In this document: positions 932 through 23,209 of the stretch, piece after piece
How the letters are laid out: every line of letters starts with the position of its first letter
Position numbering within the stretch: position 1 is the stretch's first letter
Assembly (NCBI GenBank): GCA_036867785.1
Contig: CP145422.1
Coordinates: 434,001-498,000 of the forward strand
Reading direction: 5' to 3'
DNA: 64,000 bases
DNA from: Plasmodiophora brassicae
Lineage: Eukaryota
Program-made: the position numbers and the translations under genes
The notes under the pieces: generated by a model
Told to the model about the DNA's origin: nothing
Seen by the model: the letters and a program-made list of their open reading frames with translations, nothing else
Database searches by the model: none

Positions 932-3900
932 ATGACTGGCGGCCAGAAAGTCCGTGCCGCCCTGCCAGCCTCGTCATCATCGATGGGCACGCTGGTGGCG
1001 CCCCAGGCCGACGATGGCGGACCCGGCCCGGTCGCCGGCGTATTCGACGAGACGCTCACGTTCGACGAACTGCACCGCCTGATGGCCGGCAGCACGCGCG
1101 TCAACGCATCCCGCGTGAAACGCGCCGCCGTCCAGGACCCGCTGGCGGCGCTCCTGGAATCCACCCCCAGGGAGGTGTTCACGTTTGACGAGTCGGCATG
1201 CAACACCGACAGCCTCACCTGGTTTCGTGGAGCGCGCCTCTCCGACTGCACCGACCCCGACCTGTTGTCGTCCGTCGATGGCCCCGTCCATCCACAGCCG
1301 GTCAGCGCCTTGCTGGATTCGTATCGGGCCAGGCACGCCTGCGCCGTACCCGACCAACCGGTCGAACCCGTCCTGCCATCGCCTACGGTCCAGGCGCCGT
1401 CCGGCGAGTCGCTTCCCGCGGCCGACACGGAATTCGACGCGCCGCCCGCCGCCCCGAACCGAACCTGCGACATGTTCGCGCCCGAGTCGCTGCACTTCTT
1501 CGATGAAATCTCGCCGAACGCTAAGCGTCGTAAGCTGTCGGAGCCCAGCGCGGCTCTGTTTCGGTCGTCGACGTCGGATACGGAACCGGAGGAGAACATC
1601 GTGTCGCTGGCACATGACGGGATCTTGCACGGGAGGCATATCTGGGTGCCGAAGGACCCGACGCAATGCCGGTTCGTCCTGGCCGACGACGGGTTCGATG
1701 AGGCGCCCGCTGATTTCCATGATGTCGTTGTCATTGGGGAGGAGGACGCCTTGCTGGACGAAGACGAGGACGCCGGTAGCGATCCCAGCAAGCGGATCTC
1801 TCGAGCGGACCGGCGCCGTGCCCAGCTGTGGAACAATATCGTTCGCCACGAGATGGTTCGGGAGCACCGTAAATACCAGGCCCGGTTGCTGGGTTCCGTC
1901 AACCACTTCCGACGTGTGTCGTTCATCGTTGTCAAGGAGGTCCGACGTCTGGCGCTTCGCGCTCATCGCCTCGGTCGGGACGTGGCCACCAGGGCCAAGA
2001 GGTGCACTCGGGACATGCAAGCCTACTGGCGACGAATGGAAAAGGAATTGGTCGAGCGCAAGAAATCACGTGAAAAGGAAGAACTCGAAAGGCTAAAGGT
2101 CTGTTCCTGTTCTTCCTCGTGTCTTGTGAATTGTGACACGAACGTCTGCAGGCGCTTGAAGAGGCACGAGAAGCGGCCCAGCAGCAACGGAAACTAGAGT
2201 TCCTGCTGACGCAGACGGAACTGTTCTCTCACTTCATTGGTAAGAAGATGGGGTTCATTCCCGATGCCGCTACACCCGGCAACGCACCCGGGTCAACCGC
2301 CTCGACGGCACACGTGTCGCAGGTATCGCCTATCGTCAGCAATTGATCTATCGAGGCTTAGCGTTTCCGCTGTGTGCAGGTCGACGCTGAACTCCAGGAG
2401 GAAGCCGAGGCGGCAACGAAACGTTATATCCAGCAGACTCGCGATCGGGCAAGCACATTCGATCCTGTCGCTAATGGGGCGCCCAGTGAGACAGAACCTG
2501 TTCTTGAAGACCAAGAAGGTTGGCAACTGTATTTCATTGGCCGTTCGGTGGCTGATCGGGATTGGCGTTTCAGTGGATTTGCTGAACCCGTCGACCATGC
2601 CCACGAACTCGCATCTTTGGTCTGAGCCGACCATGTTCAAGGGCAGGCTGAAGGAGTATCAGGTTCGCGGGGTGAACTGGCTCATCAATCTGTACGAGCA
2701 AGGCATTAACGGGATTCTCGCTGATGAAATGGGTATGCTCGTGTGATGCTCTGACACGGCAATCGATCAACGTGCTGCTGCTGTACAGGCCTCGGCAAAA
2801 CCATCCAGGCCATCTGCCTTCTTGCCCATTTGGCTGAAGTCAAAAACATTTGGGGACCGTTTCTTGTTGTGGCACCCAATTCAACGCTGCACCAGTGGAA
2901 ACAGGTGACTGTGCGTCGTTTCTGCCTGAACCCGCGTTTGCTGATATTGCACGATAGGAACTGAACAAATTCTGCCCTCTGCTGACCGTCATTCCGTACT
3001 GGGGGACGCAGAAGGACCGAACCACGATCCGCAAGTTCTGGAAACCAAAGGCCCTGTCTCAGAAGGATTCGCCGTTTCATGTCTGCGTTACATCGTATTC
3101 CACCTTTGTCAACGACGAAAAGCACTTCCAACGCATAAAGTGGCAGTACATGGTACGCAGTCACGATCGTTGCTGAGCATGGATGGCTCAATGCATTGCC
3201 CCGCAGGTTCTCGATGAAGCGCAAGCCATCAAGAATGCCAATTCGCAGCGATGGATGCGACTGCTTAATCTCAAATGCCGTAACCGTCTACTGCTGACTG
3301 GAACACCTATTCAAAGTCAGCATATCGAGACTGCCCAACGACATTCGTTCGCCTAACGATTTCACTTAGACTCCATGGCGGAGCTGTGGGCCCTCCTACA
3401 TTTTATCATGCCGACGCTATTCGATTCCCACGAGGAATTCAACGAATGGTAGGGGGTCGTGACGTTCAGTGGCAAATCGGTTCCCTGATGTGCTCCGCAG
3501 GTTCTCGAAGGACGTTGAAAACGCGGCCACAGGAGGTGATAAGGATCGGATAGATGCTCATAAGCTCAAGCGATTGCACATGATTCTCCAGCCATTCATG
3601 CTGAGACGTGTAAAGGTGCGTGTGCGACTGCTTGCCGCCTGTGTACGCTTTGCATGCGGGTGCTGATGCTGTCGTCAGAGTGACGTTGAACATGAAATGC
3701 CGAAGAAGACTGAAATCCACCTGAGCTGCAACCTCTCGCAGCGCCAGCGCACGCTTTATCGAGCGCTGCAGAACAAGATATCGTTCGCCGATCTGGGTGA
3801 CACGTCCCTGATGAGCAAGGAGAACCTGATGAACCTCGTCATGCAGTTCCGGAAGGTGTGCAATCACCCGGAAGTCTTCGAACGGAGCTGGGCCCATTCT

Positions 3901-15220: not shown

Positions 15221-18200
15221 TCACCAGTAGTCGGCACAGGAGCATTTGCCTTTGGAGAATCGGTGGTACCGGTTGGCATCCCTCATGTAGATCTCCCGGT
15301 CGTACAGAGCCGACAGCATCTTCGTAGCGGCGTGGCAGTCGGCGCAGACGCGAAGGTTCTTCGTTAAACGGATGGGCTCCCTGGCGGGTAACGCGTGCAG
15401 GGCGTATACGATCGCGATCTTCTCGCTGTGCTCGCAGACTGCCTGGCGCGCCGACGCCGTCGCCTTGCTGGTCACGACGGCCGTATCCGGCGAGTACCCG
15501 TGTCGGAACAGGCGCTTCAACACTTTGTCATGCTGGCTCTTGAACAGCGGATCCGACATGAACGTTGGGTCACCCGCGACGAAGTTCACCGATCGATCCT
15601 GCAAGTGCAGCGTGGTTCGCCCTTGGATCTTTTTAAACCCGGCTGCCACCATCTGTTGTCGGACGCGATCTGCGTCACCGGATCGTCCGGCGGCCGTGTA
15701 CATGTTCGCCATCTGGACGTGCGCTGCGGCGAGATGCGGCTCAGCTTCATCAACGGGCAGCCGGCGAAGTGCTGCGAACACGCGCTCAGCACGTTCCAGG
15801 TCACCGTGCTTGCGACATGCGCTTAGCAACGGCATCAGCGCCATGCCGTTCCGGGTGCCCGCCTCGGCCAGTTGTTCGGCGCGGTCCAGGTCGCCGGCTC
15901 GCCCATACAGATCGATCAGGCACGTTGTCGTGATCGGTCCCGGGCGAATGTTCCACGCCGTCTCGAATTCGGATAAGAACGCGTGCGCGAGGTCGACGTC
16001 GCCGACATGGTTGCAGCCAGTGAGCAGAGCACCCAGCGTCACAACACTGGGCAGGACGCCTCCCGATTTCATGGCCGCGAAGCACGACGAGGCCCTGTCC
16101 ATCAGGCCATGATGAGCATACACCGCGATCATAGCTGTGAACACGACGACGCCTGCAGCCGATTGCGTCTGGAAGACAGATTCAGCGTCCTCCAGGTGAC
16201 CGCAATGGCCATACGCCGAGATTAACGACGCAGCGACCCCATCGTCCTGGATCAGAACCCTTGTTTTCGCACAGCCGTGCAAGCGACGAATTGCAGAGAC
16301 GTCAGCGGATCGTTTACACGCGGCGATCACGCCCCGGAACAGTGCAACATCAACAGGGTGGCCTCGTTGCACCATTCGGTCGAATATCGACATGGCATCG
16401 CGCACACAATCTGCCTTGGATAACAGCGATACTGCAGCGGTGCACGTCTCAACGGACGAAGGACTGATCTGCCAGGTGTTCTCGAAGTCGGCGATCAGGG
16501 CACTTGCCTGGGCGACGTTGCCGGAACGATTGCATGAGGTCAGCAACGCACCCAGGGTGACGTCGTTCGGGCGAACGCCGGCTGCTTGCATGTCATCGAA
16601 GCAATGCGCGGCACGGTCGGGTGACCCATGACGCGCATACGCGGCGATCATGGCGTTGAACGCGGCGACGCCGGCACCGGGTGCGCACGCGAACACGCGA
16701 ACAGCGTCGGTGAGGGAATCGCAGCGTGAATAGGCGGAGATGGTGGCGCTGCGAACCCGGTCGTCCTGCAACAGGCCTGCAGCGCTCGAGTATGCCTCCA
16801 GCCTCTTCAACGTGGCAATATCGGCTCCGGCACCGACGAGTTCGGTGAAGACATGCTTAGCAACTGGGATGCCGTTGACCATCATCGTGTCGAACAGATC
16901 AATCGCTTCGGACAGATGCCCAGCTTTGCAGTAGAGCGACAGCGCGGTGGTCAGCGTCTCCATCGACAGCGGTTCTCGCAGCGTCTTCAGAACGTGAAGA
17001 GCTGCGTCGTATCGAGAGTGCCGAGTGTACGCTGCCATCATGGCGTTGCATATGCGTTCACTAGTAGCCGACACCGTCTTAAACACGTCTTCGGCAGCGT
17101 TAACGTCGTTGCAATCCGCATAGGCGGATATGAACGCGCTGAGCACGAACTCGTCGGCGAGTAACGACGCGGTGGCGCGCGCGTACTCGTGCAATCGTTT
17201 TACAGGCGCGACATCAGAACCGCGTCGGCAAGCGGACACGAGCGCTGACAGGGTCCGCTTGTCGACGGGAACTTTGCCCGCCACCATCGCTTCGAACAAG
17301 GACATGCCCTTCGACAGGTAATCTCTGGGATCGCCATCCCGCTCGCGAATGTACGCAGTCATCATGGCGTTGAAGATGGGCGCGGTAGGCACGGAAACGT
17401 TGGATCGCGTTTGGAATATGGATTCGGCGGTGCCGACGTCGTCACAGGCATCAAACGCGGACACGAACGAACAAACGACGAAGTCGTCACGCCACAGTGC
17501 TGGATCGCCCCTGCGTGCATGATCGTATAGGCGACGGAGGGACGTCGCGTCAAGGGCACGTTTGCAGGCGCCGATCAGGGTGACAAAGGTGCGCCCATCA
17601 ACCGGGACGCTGAAGCCCAGCATGCGATCGAACACGACCATAGCATGGGATAGGCGGCCGCTGGCGACAAGTGACGACAGCAGGTTCGTGCAGGTGATGA
17701 ACGACGGCGGCAACCCCAGGTCGTCCATCAGGGACAGGACATCGACAGCGGCGCCAGGTCGCCCTTGTGACAGAAGCGCTTTAATGAGGTTCCCGTATAT
17801 GGCCTGGTTATCGGGGAACGCCGGAACACGCCCGGAGCGCATCAGTCCCAGTAACGTCTGTGCGACATTGGCGCCCGTCGACGTCTGCGCTTCCGCACAG
17901 CAGACCGCGAACGTCGACGTCAACATCTCGCTGAATCCCACGTTGTTGCCGATGGCGTCGTCGACGAGAGGCAGTGCCAATGCAGGCTGTTTAGCGATTC
18001 TGCAGATGGTCGCAACGCATGCGATGACGTTATGCGACCGTGGCCCACACCGCGCGTACAGGTCAACGACATCGCGACAGAGAGGCGGGTCTGCGAGGCG
18101 GCAAGCGCTGCCGAACGTGCAGAACAAGGTGTCGTTGACGGCGATGCCCCGTTCGACAGCAGCGCGCAGGACGTCGGGCGCCTTGCCCGGCATGTGGTCC

Positions 18201-18454
18201 CGGCAGAACATCATCATGGCCTGGTAGAACGGGATACGCGGCTTCAGCCCGTACGCGTGCAGCACGTGCTGGAACGCGGACCATCCCCGATGCGGGTCCG
18301 GGTCCGCCTTCAGCACGCGGACCGCGCCCGGCACCGACGGCGCCCGCACGAACGCGTCGTACGCCGACGACGGCAACGACCGACGAGCGCCGGGTGGTGC
18401 CTCGGACAGTCGCCGCAGGCCAACGCGGGCCAGCGCACCGGCCCTGACCGGCAT
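15221..18454 (-). CDS. PLS-class pentatricopeptide repeat protein with E1-E2-DYW cytidine-deaminase domain
   Basis: Intronless ORF of over 1000 aa with a long PPR array, HSEKIA, KNLRVCADCH and terminal HRFSKGKCSCADYW. The Arg/Ala/Ser-rich N-terminus resembles a presequence. An alternative ATG lies at 18493. Confidence 0.95.
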   Translation of the reverse strand: MPVRAGALARVGLRRLSEAPPGARRSLPSSAYDAFVRAPSVPGAVRVLKADPDPHRGWSAFQHVLHAYGLKPRIPFYQAMMMFCRDHMPGKAPDVLRAAVERGIAVNDTLFCTFGSACRLADPPLCRDVVDLYARCGPRSHNVIACVATICRIAKQPALALPLVDDAIGNNVGFSEMLTSTFAVCCAEAQTSTGANVAQTLLGLMRSGRVPAFPDNQAIYGNLIKALLSQGRPGAAVDVLSLMDDLGLPPSFITCTNLLSSLVASGRLSHAMVVFDRMLGFSVPVDGRTFVTLIGACKRALDATSLRRLYDHARRGDPALWRDDFVVCSFVSAFDACDDVGTAESIFQTRSNVSVPTAPIFNAMMTAYIRERDGDPRDYLSKGMSLFEAMVAGKVPVDKRTLSALVSACRRGSDVAPVKRLHEYARATASLLADEFVLSAFISAYADCNDVNAAEDVFKTVSATSERICNAMMAAYTRHSRYDAALHVLKTLREPLSMETLTTALSLYCKAGHLSEAIDLFDTMMVNGIPVAKHVFTELVGAGADIATLKRLEAYSSAAGLLQDDRVRSATISAYSRCDSLTDAVRVFACAPGAGVAAFNAMIAAYARHGSPDRAAHCFDDMQAAGVRPNDVTLGALLTSCNRSGNVAQASALIADFENTWQISPSSVETCTAAVSLLSKADCVRDAMSIFDRMVQRGHPVDVALFRGVIAACKRSADVSAIRRLHGCAKTRVLIQDDGVAASLISAYGHCGHLEDAESVFQTQSAAGVVVFTAMIAVYAHHGLMDRASSCFAAMKSGGVLPSVVTLGALLTGCNHVGDVDLAHAFLSEFETAWNIRPGPITTTCLIDLYGRAGDLDRAEQLAEAGTRNGMALMPLLSACRKHGDLERAERVFAALRRLPVDEAEPHLAAAHVQMANMYTAAGRSGDADRVRQQMVAAGFKKIQGRTTLHLQDRSVNFVAGDPTFMSDPLFKSQHDKVLKRLFRHGYSPDTAVVTSKATASARQAVCEHSEKIAIVYALHALPAREPIRLTKNLRVCADCHAATKMLSALYDREIYMRDANRYHRFSKGKCSCADYW

Positions 18455-18678
18455 CGACGCCGTCAACGGTGGCGGCCGGGGGCGGGTTCGCATCTGCCTG
18501 CCCCCCTTCCGTTTTGCGCGTACGGATCACGCCCGATGCAGATCGGAACGAGCCGGGCCAGGCAGGCGCCCACCCACGAGCACATCCGCTGACCTGCCGG
18601 GAACTCCTGGGCGCGCCTCATTGTATCAGTATAGGTGGGCACTGCCCTGCGTAGGGAGGCCACTATTGATCTGTATTA

Positions 18679-18880
18679 TACAACCAGCAACAACTCAATT
18701 GAAGAAGATGCTACCTTCGTCCACCACCTCCTCCTCGAAGATATCGTCGTCAGCAATGCAGTCAAGGCCATCAGTCAAGGCCATCAGATGGCCTTGACTG
18801 CATTGCTGACGACGATATCTTCGAGGAGGAGGTGGTGGACGAAGGTAGCATCTTCTTCAATTGAGTTGTTGCTGGTTGTA
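18679..18880. repeat. Perfect 94-bp inverted repeat with a 14-nt loop
   Basis: 18679-18772 is the exact reverse complement of 18787-18880. The loop AGTCAAGGCCATCA duplicates the end of the left arm. Confidence 0.97.
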
Positions 18881-19672
18881 CCTCGTTAGCACGAAACCAG
18901 GGGCCGGCTTCCGGATCGATCCCAGTAGGCGCAGCTTGCAGTCCAGCAACTTGTCTAGCAGATTGGCGGCGCTCTCCCGTCGCAGCTCCATCGTGAAGTG
19001 TTCGAGAAAGAACGGCTTAGGTCCACAAGCCATCATGTTGATGACTTGTTTCCCCTGCACGTTCCCGGCACCGTCCAGCGTGAAGCAGATGAGAGTATGC
19101 TTAGCGAGATGGAGCAGAACGTCGTTCATGGTCAGCGCATATTCGGTTCGCATGAAATCGCCCCCGATCGCTTCGGTCGATGGAATCTTGAAGCTCCCGC
19201 GAAGCGCTTTAAAGAACGCACGCCACGACTCATGCTCAAACGCGGCAAAAGGCATCGATGTACGATGAACAGCACGAGCGAAGAGCTGCTGTAGATTCGC
19301 CAACTCCTCTCCCGACATCGAGTCGAAGTACTGGCGACCGCCGCCAGCGAGGAACAATGATGAATTCAATGGTTGCGCCATCACATCCTTGTCCACCACA
19401 CTGCCACCCGCGGATGAACTCGCAGCTGATGTGGATGCAGCACCCTTCGACGAATGTGCCGACTTCGCCGACTTCCGAGAGGGCTGGAAGCCCGCATCGA
19501 GCTGACCAATTGCGCGAGGTCGCTTCTTGCATTTCGCCCAATGATCGCGCAATCGCCCCGCTGCTGCAATAACGGCACCATCACATGCCAAGCACTTGCA
19601 GTACTTTGATTTAGAATCGCCCGAGCTGAACGGCTCGCTGAACATCTTCCAGATGTCATCCTTTGGCTTCAT
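18857..19672 (-). pseudogene. Truncated BED-zinc-finger / DUF659-type (hAT) transposase
   Basis: BED finger DIWKMF...CKCLAC...LRDHWAKC, then MPFAAFEHESWRAFFKAL and FTLDG (first catalytic Asp). The ORF stops inside the inverted arm. Confidence 0.85.
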
Positions 19673-19690
19673 CTTCGACACTGACGAAGT

Positions 19691-19813
19691 CTGCCTGCGG
19701 CCTCTGCCTGCCGCCTGCGGCCTCTGCCTGCCGCCTGCGGCCTCTGCCTGCCGCCTGCGCACTGCGCTGCGGCCTGCGCCTGCCTGCCGCCGCCGCCTGC
19801 GCACTGCGCTGCG
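19691..19813. repeat. 20-bp subterminal tandem repeat (CCGCCTGCGGCCTCTGCCTG)n plus variants
   Basis: About 3.5 near-exact units followed by degenerate units, lying between the transposase ATG and the right TIR. Confidence 0.9.
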
Positions 19814-20351
19814 GACACAGCCTATACAGTGTGTATAGTACCTCTGGAAGATGGGCGGGTATAATACCGCAACTATACAATATACGGACCGATAGAGGCC
19901 ACACACACACACACGGGTCACTGTCGTGTCCCGTTCCGTATCAGAGCGGGGGCCGCGGGCGGGGGTCCCTAGTTTAGTTTAGTTTTATTTGTTTTTCGCG
20001 CTTTCACACAGGCGCCTCGGTCTCGAGTCCGAGGATCGAAGGTTCAGCAGCAGAACGCCAACATTCCCCGGCCTGGCAGTGCCGGCCCATCGCCTTTGTA
20101 CTGGGTTCATCGCGCCTTGGACGATAGGCGGGGGTCCCTCTCGGCGAGCGTGGCGGAGTCCGCACGGGGCGGGCGCGGAGTCGCGTTGGTTGGTGGTCCA
20201 CCCGTCGATCGCCCGTTGCGATCGTCGCCCTGGACCAACACCGCAATCGTTGCAATGCGGGTGACGCGCCATCCGTGTTGTGACGTTTGAGGTGTTGTTC
20301 GAGGGCGGCGACCTGTCGCAAGACGGTGGCCGTTGTTTTATGTCGGTTCTG

Positions 20352-23209
20352 TCACCAATCCGTGTCGGACGGGGACGAATCGGTCATCGTCAGGGCGCCC
20401 TGGTTGAACTTATCGCGGGCTTCCGTACGCCTCGGTTTGGGGCGTGGCGGTTGCATGTAGGCGCCGGGTCCGGGCGTCGCTGTGGCTCGTGACGCCAAGG
20501 CCGCTTCCTGCGTCGTTGTGCTCATGGACAGGTGGGGCACCAGGACGACGATCGGCGCCGGTGCATCGTACCTCACCGATGGGTGCACCGGGTGCTCTTG
20601 TGCCCGGGCGCGTCTCGCCGCGCCGTGCCGCTGGAGCAGGACGACAATGATGATAACGAGCAGAAGCACGGCAATGCCCGCGACGATGACAATGGTCTGG
20701 TACGTGATGATCGACCCGAACGATGCGTCGTTCGACGCCTGAGGTTTCGCCGCCACCGGCGTCGCTGTCGTCCGCCGACGCGCTATCGTTGTTGGCGCAG
20801 GCACCCGTGTGGATGCGTGGTTAGCCCCAGGCACGCCGAACAACGCCGACGTGACGGCACGAACGGGTGTCGGTGCTGGCGTCGGCGCAGGAGTCGGGGC
20901 CACCACAGGCCCAGGAGTTGTCGCGACTGTCGCTGTTGACCCAGCGGGTATGGTCGGTATCGGTGTGGGGGTGCGCCAAGGCGCGGGAGACGGCGTAGGC
21001 GCCGAAGTGGGAGCAGGTGTGGGTGCGGGTGGCGTTATCGTTTGGATGCGACGAACCCGATGGTTTCTGAAGGCACACACACACACACACACGCCAGTCA
21101 GATCCTCTGGTGTACGCTCGAGCCTCGGCTGAGCCTACAGTTTGTCGGCGACGATGATGCTGGTCGTGCCGTTGATGGCGATGCAGGTCGGCTGGTTATA
21201 CGCAGCGGACGTTGGCGCGCCGTCCTGGAACCCGACCATGCCCGACCCCGACCAGGTCGACACCGCCCAGGTCGCCGCCTGCACCATCCGGATCCGGGAG
21301 TTGAGCTTGTCGACGACGAACACGTTGCCGACGGCGTCCACGGCAACGCTGACGGGGGCGTTGAAGGCGGCCGATGTCCCGACCGCATCGACGTAGGCCT
21401 GTGCCCCGCTGCCAGCGACCGTCGACACTGCCCCCGTCGGCGACACCATCCGAATGCGGTTGTTGTTCATATCGGCGACGTACAGGTTGCCGGTGGTCGC
21501 GTCGATCGCGATGCCCATCGGGCTATAGAAGCTGGCCGCCGCGCCCTGGCCGTCGCCGAACTTGCCAGCGCCGCTGCCGGCGACCGTCGACACGACGCCG
21601 GACGGCGACACCTTGCGGATCCGGTTGTTGTTCTGGTCGGCAACGTAGAAGTTGCCGGCGGCGTCCATGGCCAGGCCATACGGGCCGTTGAATTTCGCTG
21701 CGGTCCCAGCGCCGTCTGCGTAGCCGGGCGCCCCCGACCCCGCTAGCGTCGTCACGTTGCCCGACGGGGTCACCTTGCGAATCGCGTTGTTGTACCAGTC
21801 GGCGACGACCACGTTGTTGTCGCGGTCGACGACGACCATTGCCGGGTTGTTGAACGAGGCCGACCCGGCGGGGCCATTCACCAGGGCGGCGACGCCGTTA
21901 CCGGCGACCGTCGACACGGTCCCGTTCGGGGCGACCATCCGGATCCGATTCGAACCATCGCTGATTATCACGTTGCCGTTCGCGTCGAACGCCACTGCAC
22001 GAGGCTGGTTGAATACTGCCGTGCTGGCAGGCCCGTCCTGGTACCCGAGCGCGCCGGTCCCCGCCAACGTTGTGACGGTACCGGGCGCGTCCCCGGTCCC
22101 GCCGTCGACGATCTGGATTGACCGAATCCGGTTCTCCCTGCCAGGACAGTGCGATCAGCTGGGCGGCGCTGCTCGGGGCGACGGCCGGCTTACGCCTTGT
22201 CGGCGACGAGGATGTTTGTGGTGCCGTTGACAACGATGCCGGCGGGGCTGTCGAACTGTGCGGACGCAGGCCCACCGTCGAGGAACCCGGCCGCACCGGA
22301 CCCTGCCCAAGTCGACACCGCCCCCGTTGCAATCGACAGGACCCGGATGCGGTAGTTGAGTCGGTCGGTGACGAACAGGTGGCCCGCACTGTCCATCGTC
22401 AGGCTGGTCGGGTTGTTGAACGCCGCCTGCGTCCCGACGGGTGCGTCGATGTACGACGCGACGCCCGTGCCGGCCAACGTCGAAACGTATCCGGACGGCG
22501 AGACCGTCCTGATGCGATGGTTGCTTGTGTCGGCGACGTACAGGTTGCCGTTGGCGTCGATCGTGATCCCCAACGGGGAAAGGAAGCTGGCCGCCGTGCC
22601 CTGGCCGTCGGCGAACGCGGCGCTGCCACTGCCGGCGAACGTGGAGACGACACCCGACGGGGTCACCTTTCGGATTCGATGGTTGTTCTGATCGGTGACG
22701 TACAGGTTGCCGTTGCCGTCCAGGCAGGCGCCGTACGGGAAGTTGAACAGGGCGCCGGTCCCGTTGCCGTCCAGGTACCCGGCGGTGCCGTTCCCCGCCA
22801 GGGTCGTCACCCTGCCGGTCGCTGTTACCTTCCGAATCGCATTGTTCTGCCAGTCGGTGACGATCAGGTCGCCGTTGGCGTCGACGACGACCTGCGTTGG
22901 GTAACGGAAGCTGGCGGATGCGCCCTGTCCATCGGCGAACCCTGCTGAGCCGCTGCCGGCGACGAGCGATGTGACCCCGTTCGCGATCTTCCGAATGCAG
23001 TTGTTGTCGGAATCGGCGACGTAGACGCTGCCGAACGAATCCATGGCCAGGCCTCGGGGCGTTTTGAAAATCGCTTGCACGACGCGCCCCTCCAAGTACC
23101 CTGCCGTACCGTTGCCTGCGAACGTGGTCACAGGTCCAGGGGCCATGGCGCCCAGCCCGGTTGCCATCCGCCAGGCGGCAACCGCTATGACAACGAGCCC
23201 AAACGGCAT
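20352..23209 (-). CDS. Type I membrane protein with two NHL-repeat beta-propellers and a Pro/Thr-rich stalk (3 exons)
   Basis: Signal peptide, about 12 NHL repeats (F..P.G...D..GNLYVAD..N.RIR), a PAPT-rich linker and the TM helix IVIVAGIAVLLLVIIIVVLL. Confidence 0.9.

Follow-up and report, generated by a model that had tools for sequence, protein, structure and literature searches.

In a 64,000-nt stretch of the Plasmodiophora brassicae genome (assembly GCA_036867785.1, contig CP145422.1, positions 434,001 to 498,000; henceforth the window, to which all coordinates refer), a 1,231-bp element assigned to the hAT transposons was delimited at 18664-19894 on the minus strand, which lacks about 1.3 kb of its middle (the dimerisation domain and the greater part of the catalytic core of its transposase) and contains a perfect 94-nt inverted repeat. 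At a probability of about 60%, this element is a solitary and immobile remnant, left as the scar of an abortive gap repair and possibly a source of hairpin RNA that targets itself, and not a working "killer" locus. The original prediction for this DNA, made from its letters, had likened it to Mu killer; the locus is Mu killer-like in form, but the homologous active targets that define Mu killer were not found in two sequenced DNA runs and in protein searches.

The borders of the element were given by GAGGCCAC, which occurs as an 8/8 direct repeat at 18656-18663 and 19895-19902 and was the only pair of equal 8-mers at that spacing among 62,753 window positions. An 8-bp target-site duplication (TSD) is a hallmark of hAT transposition, and the termini enclosed by this TSD are 18664 and 19894. 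The terminal 13 nt match in inverted orientation at 10 of 13 positions (TATCGGTCCGTAT versus TATTGATCTGTAT) and constitute a short terminal inverted repeat (TIR; 18664-18676 and 19882-19894). The imperfect TIRs of the original prediction are hence present, but the ends it had placed at 18658 and 19900 each overshoot the true terminus by 6 bp; these outer 6 bp were taken for TIR because GGCC is its own reverse complement and the TSD resembles an inverted repeat. The 3' terminus (18664-18678, minus strand, sense ...ATACAGATCAATA) is outside the palindromic duplication and corresponds to the 3' termini of related elements (...ACAGAACAGTA or ...CAGATCCATA), and BLASTN similarity to these relatives begins at 19894-19905 on the other side. 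The region from 19673 to 19894 (minus strand) is taken up by the 5' leader and presumed promoter, with 20-bp tandem repeats at 19693-19759 (direct repeat D1), a single GGTATTATAC motif in subterminal position, and the 5' TIR (sense TATCGGTCCGTAT). Over 19693-19823, three perfect 20-bp units (GCCTGCGGCCTCTGCCTGCC...) are accompanied by degenerate copies, and a (CA)n microsatellite (19901-19915) starts within the right-hand TSD. No second copy of the element was found in the window by self-BLAST. A nested arrangement of one element within another, of the "double-Ds" type, was ruled out by the single pair of termini and the single TSD.

The inverted repeat consists of two arms of 94 nt each (18679-18772 and 18787-18880), which are 100% complementary, beyond what chance would produce, and are separated by a 14-nt spacer. 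In addition, CAGTCAAGGCCAT is present twice in tandem (18759-18771 and 18772-18784), so that the repeat analysis recovered both the perfect inverted repeat and the 13-nt duplication that had been predicted. Translated on the minus strand, the distal arm (18679-18772) reads DGLDCIADDDIFEEEVVDEGSIFFN-stop, again as predicted, and comprises the last 25 codons (18772-18698), the stop codon (18697-18695), and 16 nt of 3' untranslated region (UTR). Of the 14 nt of the spacer, or loop (18773-18786), 13 belong to the second copy of CAGTCAAGGCCAT (direct repeat D5, inverted repeat I5). The proximal arm (18787-18880, minus strand) represents an antisense copy of the 3' end and supplies the final 7 codons (YNQQQLN) and the stop codon of the open reading frame (ORF) that runs into it. 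On folding, the sense RNA of 18679-18880 formed the full stem at -192.8 kcal/mol.

This minus-strand ORF extends from an ATG at 19672 to a stop at 18857 (271 aa), with 264 codons (18881-19672) ahead of the arm and 7 codons plus the stop inside it. The 264 codons correspond to the N-terminal part of a transposase, namely a putative BED-type zinc finger and the start of a DUF659/RNase-H-like domain, without the rest of the catalytic core and without the dimerisation domain. The region around the first catalytic aspartate (TLDGAGN) is kept, and a C-x2-C-x13-H-x3-C pattern is present whose residues C27, C30, H44, and C48 are invariant across 13 relatives. Searched against Pfam, the ORF itself gave nothing at E ≤ 0.01 and only a spurious match to 2-oxogl_dehyd_N (E 0.046). 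An exhaustive phmmer search yielded 592 relatives at E ≤ 1e-3, of which 25 reached E ≤ 1e-30. Full-length relatives are 789-856 aa long, are 51-58% identical to the ORF, align with it from their N-termini, and run beyond ...APGF.L.R into a conserved NEHFxNPPMFxFCSDSPSVM...GGERNHK... region. For domain scans (E ≤ 0.001), 27 longer and more distant relatives (at least 453 aa, excluding those inspected before) were picked from 150 listed of the 592; DUF659 was detected in 24, Dimer_Tnp_hAT in 18, zf-BED at the aligned N-terminus in three, and no domain in two of them. Among eight closer relatives scanned, only P0168 had both DUF659 and Dimer_Tnp_hAT, P0152 had a weak DUF659 match, and the sole match of P0007 was to the unrelated MRP-S33 domain. 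The family profile (A1) aligned with the Pfam-positive one (A3) in hhalign at 100% probability (E 3.5e-62) over 598 columns. A profile search of the PDB sequences with the family alignment returned only four chance-level matches (E 0.28-0.82). By homology, the family can thus be assigned to a divergent hAT lineage with BED, DUF659, and hAT-dimerisation domains; the RNase-H-like core and the dimerisation domain were found in the family and not in the window copy, which ends at codon 264. The predicted internally deleted hAT element with an N-terminal BED/DUF659 ORF was accordingly borne out via homologues only, the ORF being without a Pfam match. A P. brassicae-named protein of 174 aa (P0169) is 99% identical to the ORF over 64%, differs from it in one residue (DGATN instead of the DGAGN of the window), and ends in ...TRYNQQQLN, i.e., in the same junction of ORF and arm. 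By itself, this match would assign the window to P. brassicae or a very close relative.

The native one of the two arms was identified from the loci of relatives, of which 18 were obtained from a scan of metagenome contigs and compared by BLASTN with the window element in sense orientation. The N-terminal part of the ORF was matched in 18/18 loci. The tail was found once, in sense, and at the 3' end in all ten loci that extend far enough (full-length or nearly so: L001, L003, L004, L005, L006, L010, L011, L012, L015, and L016), the contigs of the other eight ending earlier. The ATG lies about 2.0-2.2 kb upstream of it, except in L015 and L016, where the distance is 1.7 kb. Both arms of the query matched one single interval per relative; therefore, no relative has an inverted second copy. 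Compared with these relatives, the tail is the best-conserved nucleotide stretch of the element (75-87%, with the ORF at about 70%). At the protein level, P0173 (227 aa, 81% identical to the ORF) is an in-frame internal-deletion derivative in which the N-terminal 170 aa are joined to the tail; the arm peptide matches its exact C-terminus (...GPDRIDDDDIFEEEMVDQGNIFY) at 16/23 positions, with a score of 84 compared to 26.7 (sd 4.5) for shuffled sequences. For nine other full-length or nearly full-length relatives (P0152-P0164), the best local tail match was in the last 26 residues, with scores mostly within the shuffled range. Judged by this comparison, the distal arm and the terminus are the native 3' end and the proximal arm is its inverted copy. 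The prediction of a native C-terminus in the distal arm and an antisense copy in the proximal one is confirmed by the single sense tails and by the C-terminus of P0173, and the arm was the 3' end of fuller elements in each of the ten metagenome loci long enough to include it, as would be expected from that reading.

The termini of the relatives were placed where independent insertions diverge, which gave 5'-TAT[TG]GG... and ...ACAG(A/T)(A/C)CA(G/A)TA-3' as ends. The 5' motif TAT[TG]GG... was present upstream of the ORF in 17/18 related loci; the contig of the remaining one (L004) begins too late to include it. TSDs of 8 bp matching at 7-8 of 8 positions were detected in eight of the nine loci with both termini, representing three distinct insertion sites, and the TSD of L005 matched at only 1/8 positions with its ends as placed. 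Element lengths in the relatives were 2,053-2,614 bp. Subterminal GGTATTATAC-like motifs occur several times per end in the relatives and once, at the 5' end, in the window copy, in which only 31 nt lie between the stop codon and the 3' terminus. A search of the 3' ends of the relatives with the terminal 14-mer of the 5' end, inverted and with as many as 3 substitutions allowed, gave nothing useful because the TIRs of the family are too imperfect. One set of flanks and one TSD (GTTGGTTA / GCTGGTTA) are common to loci L012, L006, and L015/L016, whose elements are 2,523, 2,409, and 2,053 bp long, respectively; such differing lengths at one insertion site would fit internal deletions arising in place.

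The presence of the palindrome outside the present assembly was examined in contigs assembled from sequencing runs. At least 63% of the words sampled from the locus are present in each of twenty runs from eight studies, and four of these runs were compared at 85% likeness. This evidence consists of contigs, not of raw or long reads, and both arms were never seen on one molecule. In the two DNA-labelled runs X1 and X2, which stem from different studies, the locus was represented by contigs covering 17800-18708 and 18851-19722 and by a 94-nt unitig for 18679-18772, all with 0 differences to the window. These contig breaks are exactly those required of a k = 31 graph at a perfect palindrome. In X1, the depth of the arm was 118.6, i.e., 2.2 times that of the flanks (52.2 and 56.2), and the loop had about 59 (1x, from bin 18709-18809). 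In X2, a 74-nt contig (18743-18816) with a depth of 8.2 crosses the loop and the arm had a depth of 43.8; the low loop and arm depth in this run was read as under-representation of the hairpin-forming stretch. Across the four runs, 0 differences were counted over 841-919 nt. The palindrome is not specific to the present assembly.

Copy number was estimated from contig depth in these two DNA-labelled runs and from named proteins. The part of the ORF at 18911-19617 had a depth of 56.2 (X1) and 49.8 (X2) compared to 45-52 in the flanks, which corresponds to a single copy, and no other contig with at least 85% likeness to this part was present in X1 or X2. In three protein searches, P0007 (621 aa) was the sole further relative with a P. 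brassicae name; it is 41% identical to the ORF, ends before the GGERNHK motif, and has neither the tail nor the C-terminal third. The gene model of this second, diverged hAT remnant continues into an MRP-S33 domain of mitochondrial ribosomes (Pfam E 1.4e-12) and is probably fused or chimeric. Within the limits of this sampling, there is no target in the P. brassicae genome for small RNAs from the stem or for a BED repressor.

Transcription was assessed from runs labelled as RNA; these labels are guesses, no run is on record as RNA, and the contigs show neither strand, ends, nor level of a transcript. The RNA-labelled contigs cover 18882-19722 in X14 (depth 33) and 18787-19705 in X10 (depth 15.6), and the neighbouring pentatricopeptide repeat (PPR) gene is covered as well. 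Depth in the RNA-labelled runs was zero on 18507-18708 and 19820-19920. Within the 5' leader, the RNA-labelled contigs start at 19722 and 19705, and DNA and RNA contigs alike break in its tandem repeats. No RNA-labelled contig across the loop or the whole hairpin is listed for X10 and X14. This coverage fits RNA and suggests a transcript that starts at about 19705-19820 and ends in or at the stem.

The small-RNA pathway of the organism was taken from published work. P. brassicae is described as having two AGOs and no Dicer, with a Drosha-like RNase III required for small-RNA biogenesis; its small RNAs are mostly 21 nt long and phased and originate from intergenic regions, transposons, and exons, and one palindromic region, for which coordinates are given in another assembly, yields microRNAs (miRNAs) (PMC13547706). 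No RNA-dependent RNA polymerase (RdRP) was detected according to the accessible part of the genome report (PMC4471660). The mature miRNAs miR001-miR225 (Table S8, PMC13547706) were compared by eye with both strands of the arm, and none lies within it. A T-free 15-mer of the arm was absent from both supplementary files of that article, which list no small interfering RNA (siRNA) sequences, and the loci of phased siRNAs (PHAS) and heterochromatic siRNAs (hc-siRNA) are given there only in the coordinates of another assembly. An Rfam search of 18400-20400 returned only generic hairpins below the gathering score (mir-4477, 49.8 versus 74; mir-2_2, 30.5 versus 94). Small-RNA production from the stem is plausible.

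These observations can be brought together as follows. Intact termini and an intact TSD around a deleted and rearranged interior would be the outcome of an interrupted gap repair, and interrupted, template-switching gap repair is the model for such derivatives of Ac/Ds and P elements. An attempt at excision would have left a gap that was refilled from the sister copy inward from both ends; the strand from the 3' end would have changed template or turned back on itself and been extended outward over 94 nt of its own sequence, leaving the 13-nt slippage duplication at the turn, and this fold-back strand would have been joined to the strand from the 5' end at codon 264. The derivative appears to be transcribed from its own 5' region and encodes the 264-aa fragment with the putative BED finger, plus 7 junction residues. 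Its transcript would then enter the perfect 94-bp stem, which would end or destabilise it and would be a likely substrate of the Drosha-like RNase III. Because no intact or near-identical member of the family is detectable, any small RNAs could hit only the element's own transcript. A search of the literature on transposable elements and hAT in P. brassicae revealed nothing specific to this element.

Several points weigh against this account. The mechanism is deduced from the anatomy alone, and the rearrangement could predate transposition to the present site. Family copies with less than 85% nucleotide identity could be missed by depth in two runs and by the published annotation, for which repeats were masked (PMC4471660). 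The X14 contig stops at 18882, a single base short of the stem, without any assembled k-mers of the arm; this stop could be technical, or it could fit cleavage at the stem base, in which case the hairpin would be more than an inert scar. Finally, a 1,246-nt contig of X10 is unaccounted for: it joins 18787 to the opposite strand of 19672-19705 (34 nt of the 5' leader, reaching the first base of the start codon) and then carries 293 letters that could be placed nowhere in 17800-20800. Its match also stops at 19705, whereas the contigs of the other runs reach 19722. As one contig from one run, matched at 85% likeness, it may be a chimera, or it may represent a second arrangement in some isolates.

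Among the other explanations, an assembly artefact, i.e., a palindrome absent from the genome, is scarcely credible. Long-read chimeras and assembler errors can create perfect palindromes, and no raw or long read was seen across both arms, but X1 and X2 independently give both outer arm junctions and the 94-nt unitig, X2 also the loop contig, the arm-to-flank ratio of 2.2 and a loop at about 1x in X1 speak for a real inverted repeat, and YNQQQLN, encoded by the arm, forms the end of P0169, which comes from another assembly; the original prediction had left the artefact as an option. That prediction had further proposed a trans-silencer of intact family members, combined with a truncated BED protein acting as a repressor like KP. 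An inverted transposon duplication behind a retained promoter and a preserved DNA-binding BED-finger part would suit this, and the principle is documented for Mutator (PMC3440606) and, for hAT, in inverted duplications of Ac/Ds that give dsRNA (double-stranded RNA), siRNAs, and heritable repression (bioRxiv 10.1101/2020.01.07.897926). What is missing are the targets, given an ORF at 1x, an arm at about 2x, no further contig at 85% or above in the two DNA runs, and a sole other P. brassicae-named family protein that is 41% identical and has no tail. Moreover, the stem comprises no more than the final 75 nt of coding sequence and 19 further nt (the stop and the 16 nt of 3' UTR) and includes neither promoter nor TIR, and the longest perfect run shared with the tails of relatives is about 16 nt (by eye), which is shorter than a 21-nt small RNA. 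Trans-silencing of this kind is consequently very unlikely, and the claim of a silencer with a repressor protein finds no support in an element that is single-copy in both DNA runs and whose stem contains no published miRNA.

A less remote, still doubtful explanation is an endogenous hairpin-RNA (hpRNA) or miRNA-like locus, in which PbDRL cuts the base of the stem and dices 21-nt RNAs that act in cis on the BED-ORF transcript or as a guard against horizontally transferred relatives. It draws on the perfect 94-bp stem with its folding energy of -192.8 kcal/mol, on the end of the X14 contig at 18882 without arm k-mers despite an ORF depth of 33, and on the tail as the best-conserved nucleotide stretch (75-87% versus about 70%); since no RdRP was detected (PMC4471660, accessible part), hairpins or other transcripts that pair with themselves would be important suppliers of dsRNA. 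However, Pb-miR001 to miR225 are without a match in the arm (by eye) and the 15-mer is absent from the supplementary files (PMC13547706), the drop of RNA coverage at the stem may be technical, hairpins being poorly reverse-transcribed and assembled, and the X10 contig includes the proximal arm. The particular version in which the stem is a substrate of the Drosha-like pathway and its 21-nt RNAs serve as a genomic "vaccination" against a re-invading hAT family is quite improbable; if true, it would be the birth of a small-RNA gene from a transposon, caught in a rhizarian. A comparably low weight is given to domestication, by which the ORF would be a BED-finger host protein and the hairpin a terminator or transcript end that keeps read-through away from the promoter of the PPR-DYW gene, which lies 171 bp downstream. 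The locus was found in runs from eight studies with 0 differences over 841-919 nt in four of them, P0169 has the same ORF-arm junction, and the RNA-labelled runs have no depth from the stem to the PPR gene. On the other hand, P. brassicae isolates appear very similar overall, so that identity across runs says little on selection; the window copy departs from P0169 at a family-conserved residue (DGAGN versus DGATN), no orthologue-level sign of purifying selection was seen, and both the point of truncation and the 7 residues at the junction seem to be accidents.

Read as a gap-repair scar, the element has several counterparts among known systems. With Ds-type derivatives of Ac, for which an origin by abortive gap repair is proposed, it shares the preserved termini and 8-bp TSD, the loss of the transposase interior, and filler taken from nearby element sequence at the break; it differs in that its filler is a perfect 94-nt inversion of the 3' end, forming a hairpin, and in being a solitary copy without a detectable autonomous partner. 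Repressors of the KP type, i.e., truncated P-element transposases of Drosophila with a retained DNA-binding domain, resemble it in that an internal deletion leaves an N-terminal zinc-finger fragment, which might putatively occupy transposase sites, but they belong to another superfamily, and no mobile partners are available for repression here. In Mu killer, too, part of a transposase gene is naturally duplicated in inverted orientation and can give rise to hairpin RNA by transcription; there, the TIRA promoter region and 5' mudrA are duplicated, a hairpin of about 4 kb is proposed, transcription is by read-through from a flanking gene, and active MuDR elements are the targets (PMC3440606), whereas the stem in the window consists of 94 bp from the 3' end, the promoter would be the element's own, and no targets were found. 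Composite insertions of Ac/Ds are also hAT-derived, and inverted repeats of fractured elements in them give rise to dsRNA from their own or flanking promoters; as far as described (bioRxiv 10.1101/2020.01.07.897926), they are large, originate from alternative transposition of two elements with re-replication, and silence active Ac, in contrast to the present case, which occurred within one element, inside intact termini, and without an active family. The palindromic miRNA region of P. brassicae (PMC13547706) is, like the locus studied here, a genomic palindrome in a transcribed region of an organism with Drosha-like 21-nt processing; the tables of that article that were compared contain no small RNA from the window stem, and the published region, whose coordinates refer to another assembly, may be that of the window or a different one.

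The locus is an example of how interrupted repair may reshape a cut-and-paste transposon, with ends and TSD kept, the catalytic middle lost, and a fold-back gained. As a single-copy, apparently transcribed, and perfect 94-bp hairpin, it is also a natural reporter for how a Dicer-less pathway handles long stems, and small-RNA libraries of P. brassicae from five life stages have already been generated (PMC13547706).

Among the closest named relatives outside Plasmodiophora (P0003, P0209, P0216, P0217, P0218, P0170, P0204, and P0205) are fragments from two independent assemblies of Aphanomyces invadans with 86-96% amino-acid identity over 13-49% of the ORF, relatives from Sphagnum assemblies with 61-71% identity, and one from the diatom Fragilaria crotonensis with 86% over 14%. 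High identity across eukaryotic supergroups in a patchy distribution hints at horizontal transposon transfer among plant-associated eukaryotes; a literature search on horizontal transfer of hAT elements in oomycetes or Aphanomyces gave nothing specific.

The window has a G+C content of 60%, and its genes are eukaryotic. A 156-bp stretch (19971-20126), situated 70 bp from the hAT element, lies between two perfect direct copies of the 13-bp GGCGGGGGTCCCT (19958-19970 and 20127-20139). Its depth in the DNA-labelled runs was 1,000-3,800 compared to about 45-55 around it, and it is abundant in the RNA-labelled runs too; no second copy was found in the window and no match in Rfam. The stretch looks like a dispersed short repeat, similar to a short interspersed nuclear element (SINE) or a miniature inverted-repeat transposable element (MITE). 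On the other side of the element, an intron-less gene on the minus strand (15221-18493) encodes a PPR protein of 1,090 aa with an E motif and a terminal DYW deaminase domain (Pfam E 1.2e-30), a type associated with C-to-U editing of organellar RNA; the literature on DYW pentatricopeptide proteins in Plasmodiophora offered nothing specific. Paralogues of this PPR-DYW gene are suggested by other contigs from the runs, in which 18113-18192 is matched with 8 differences.

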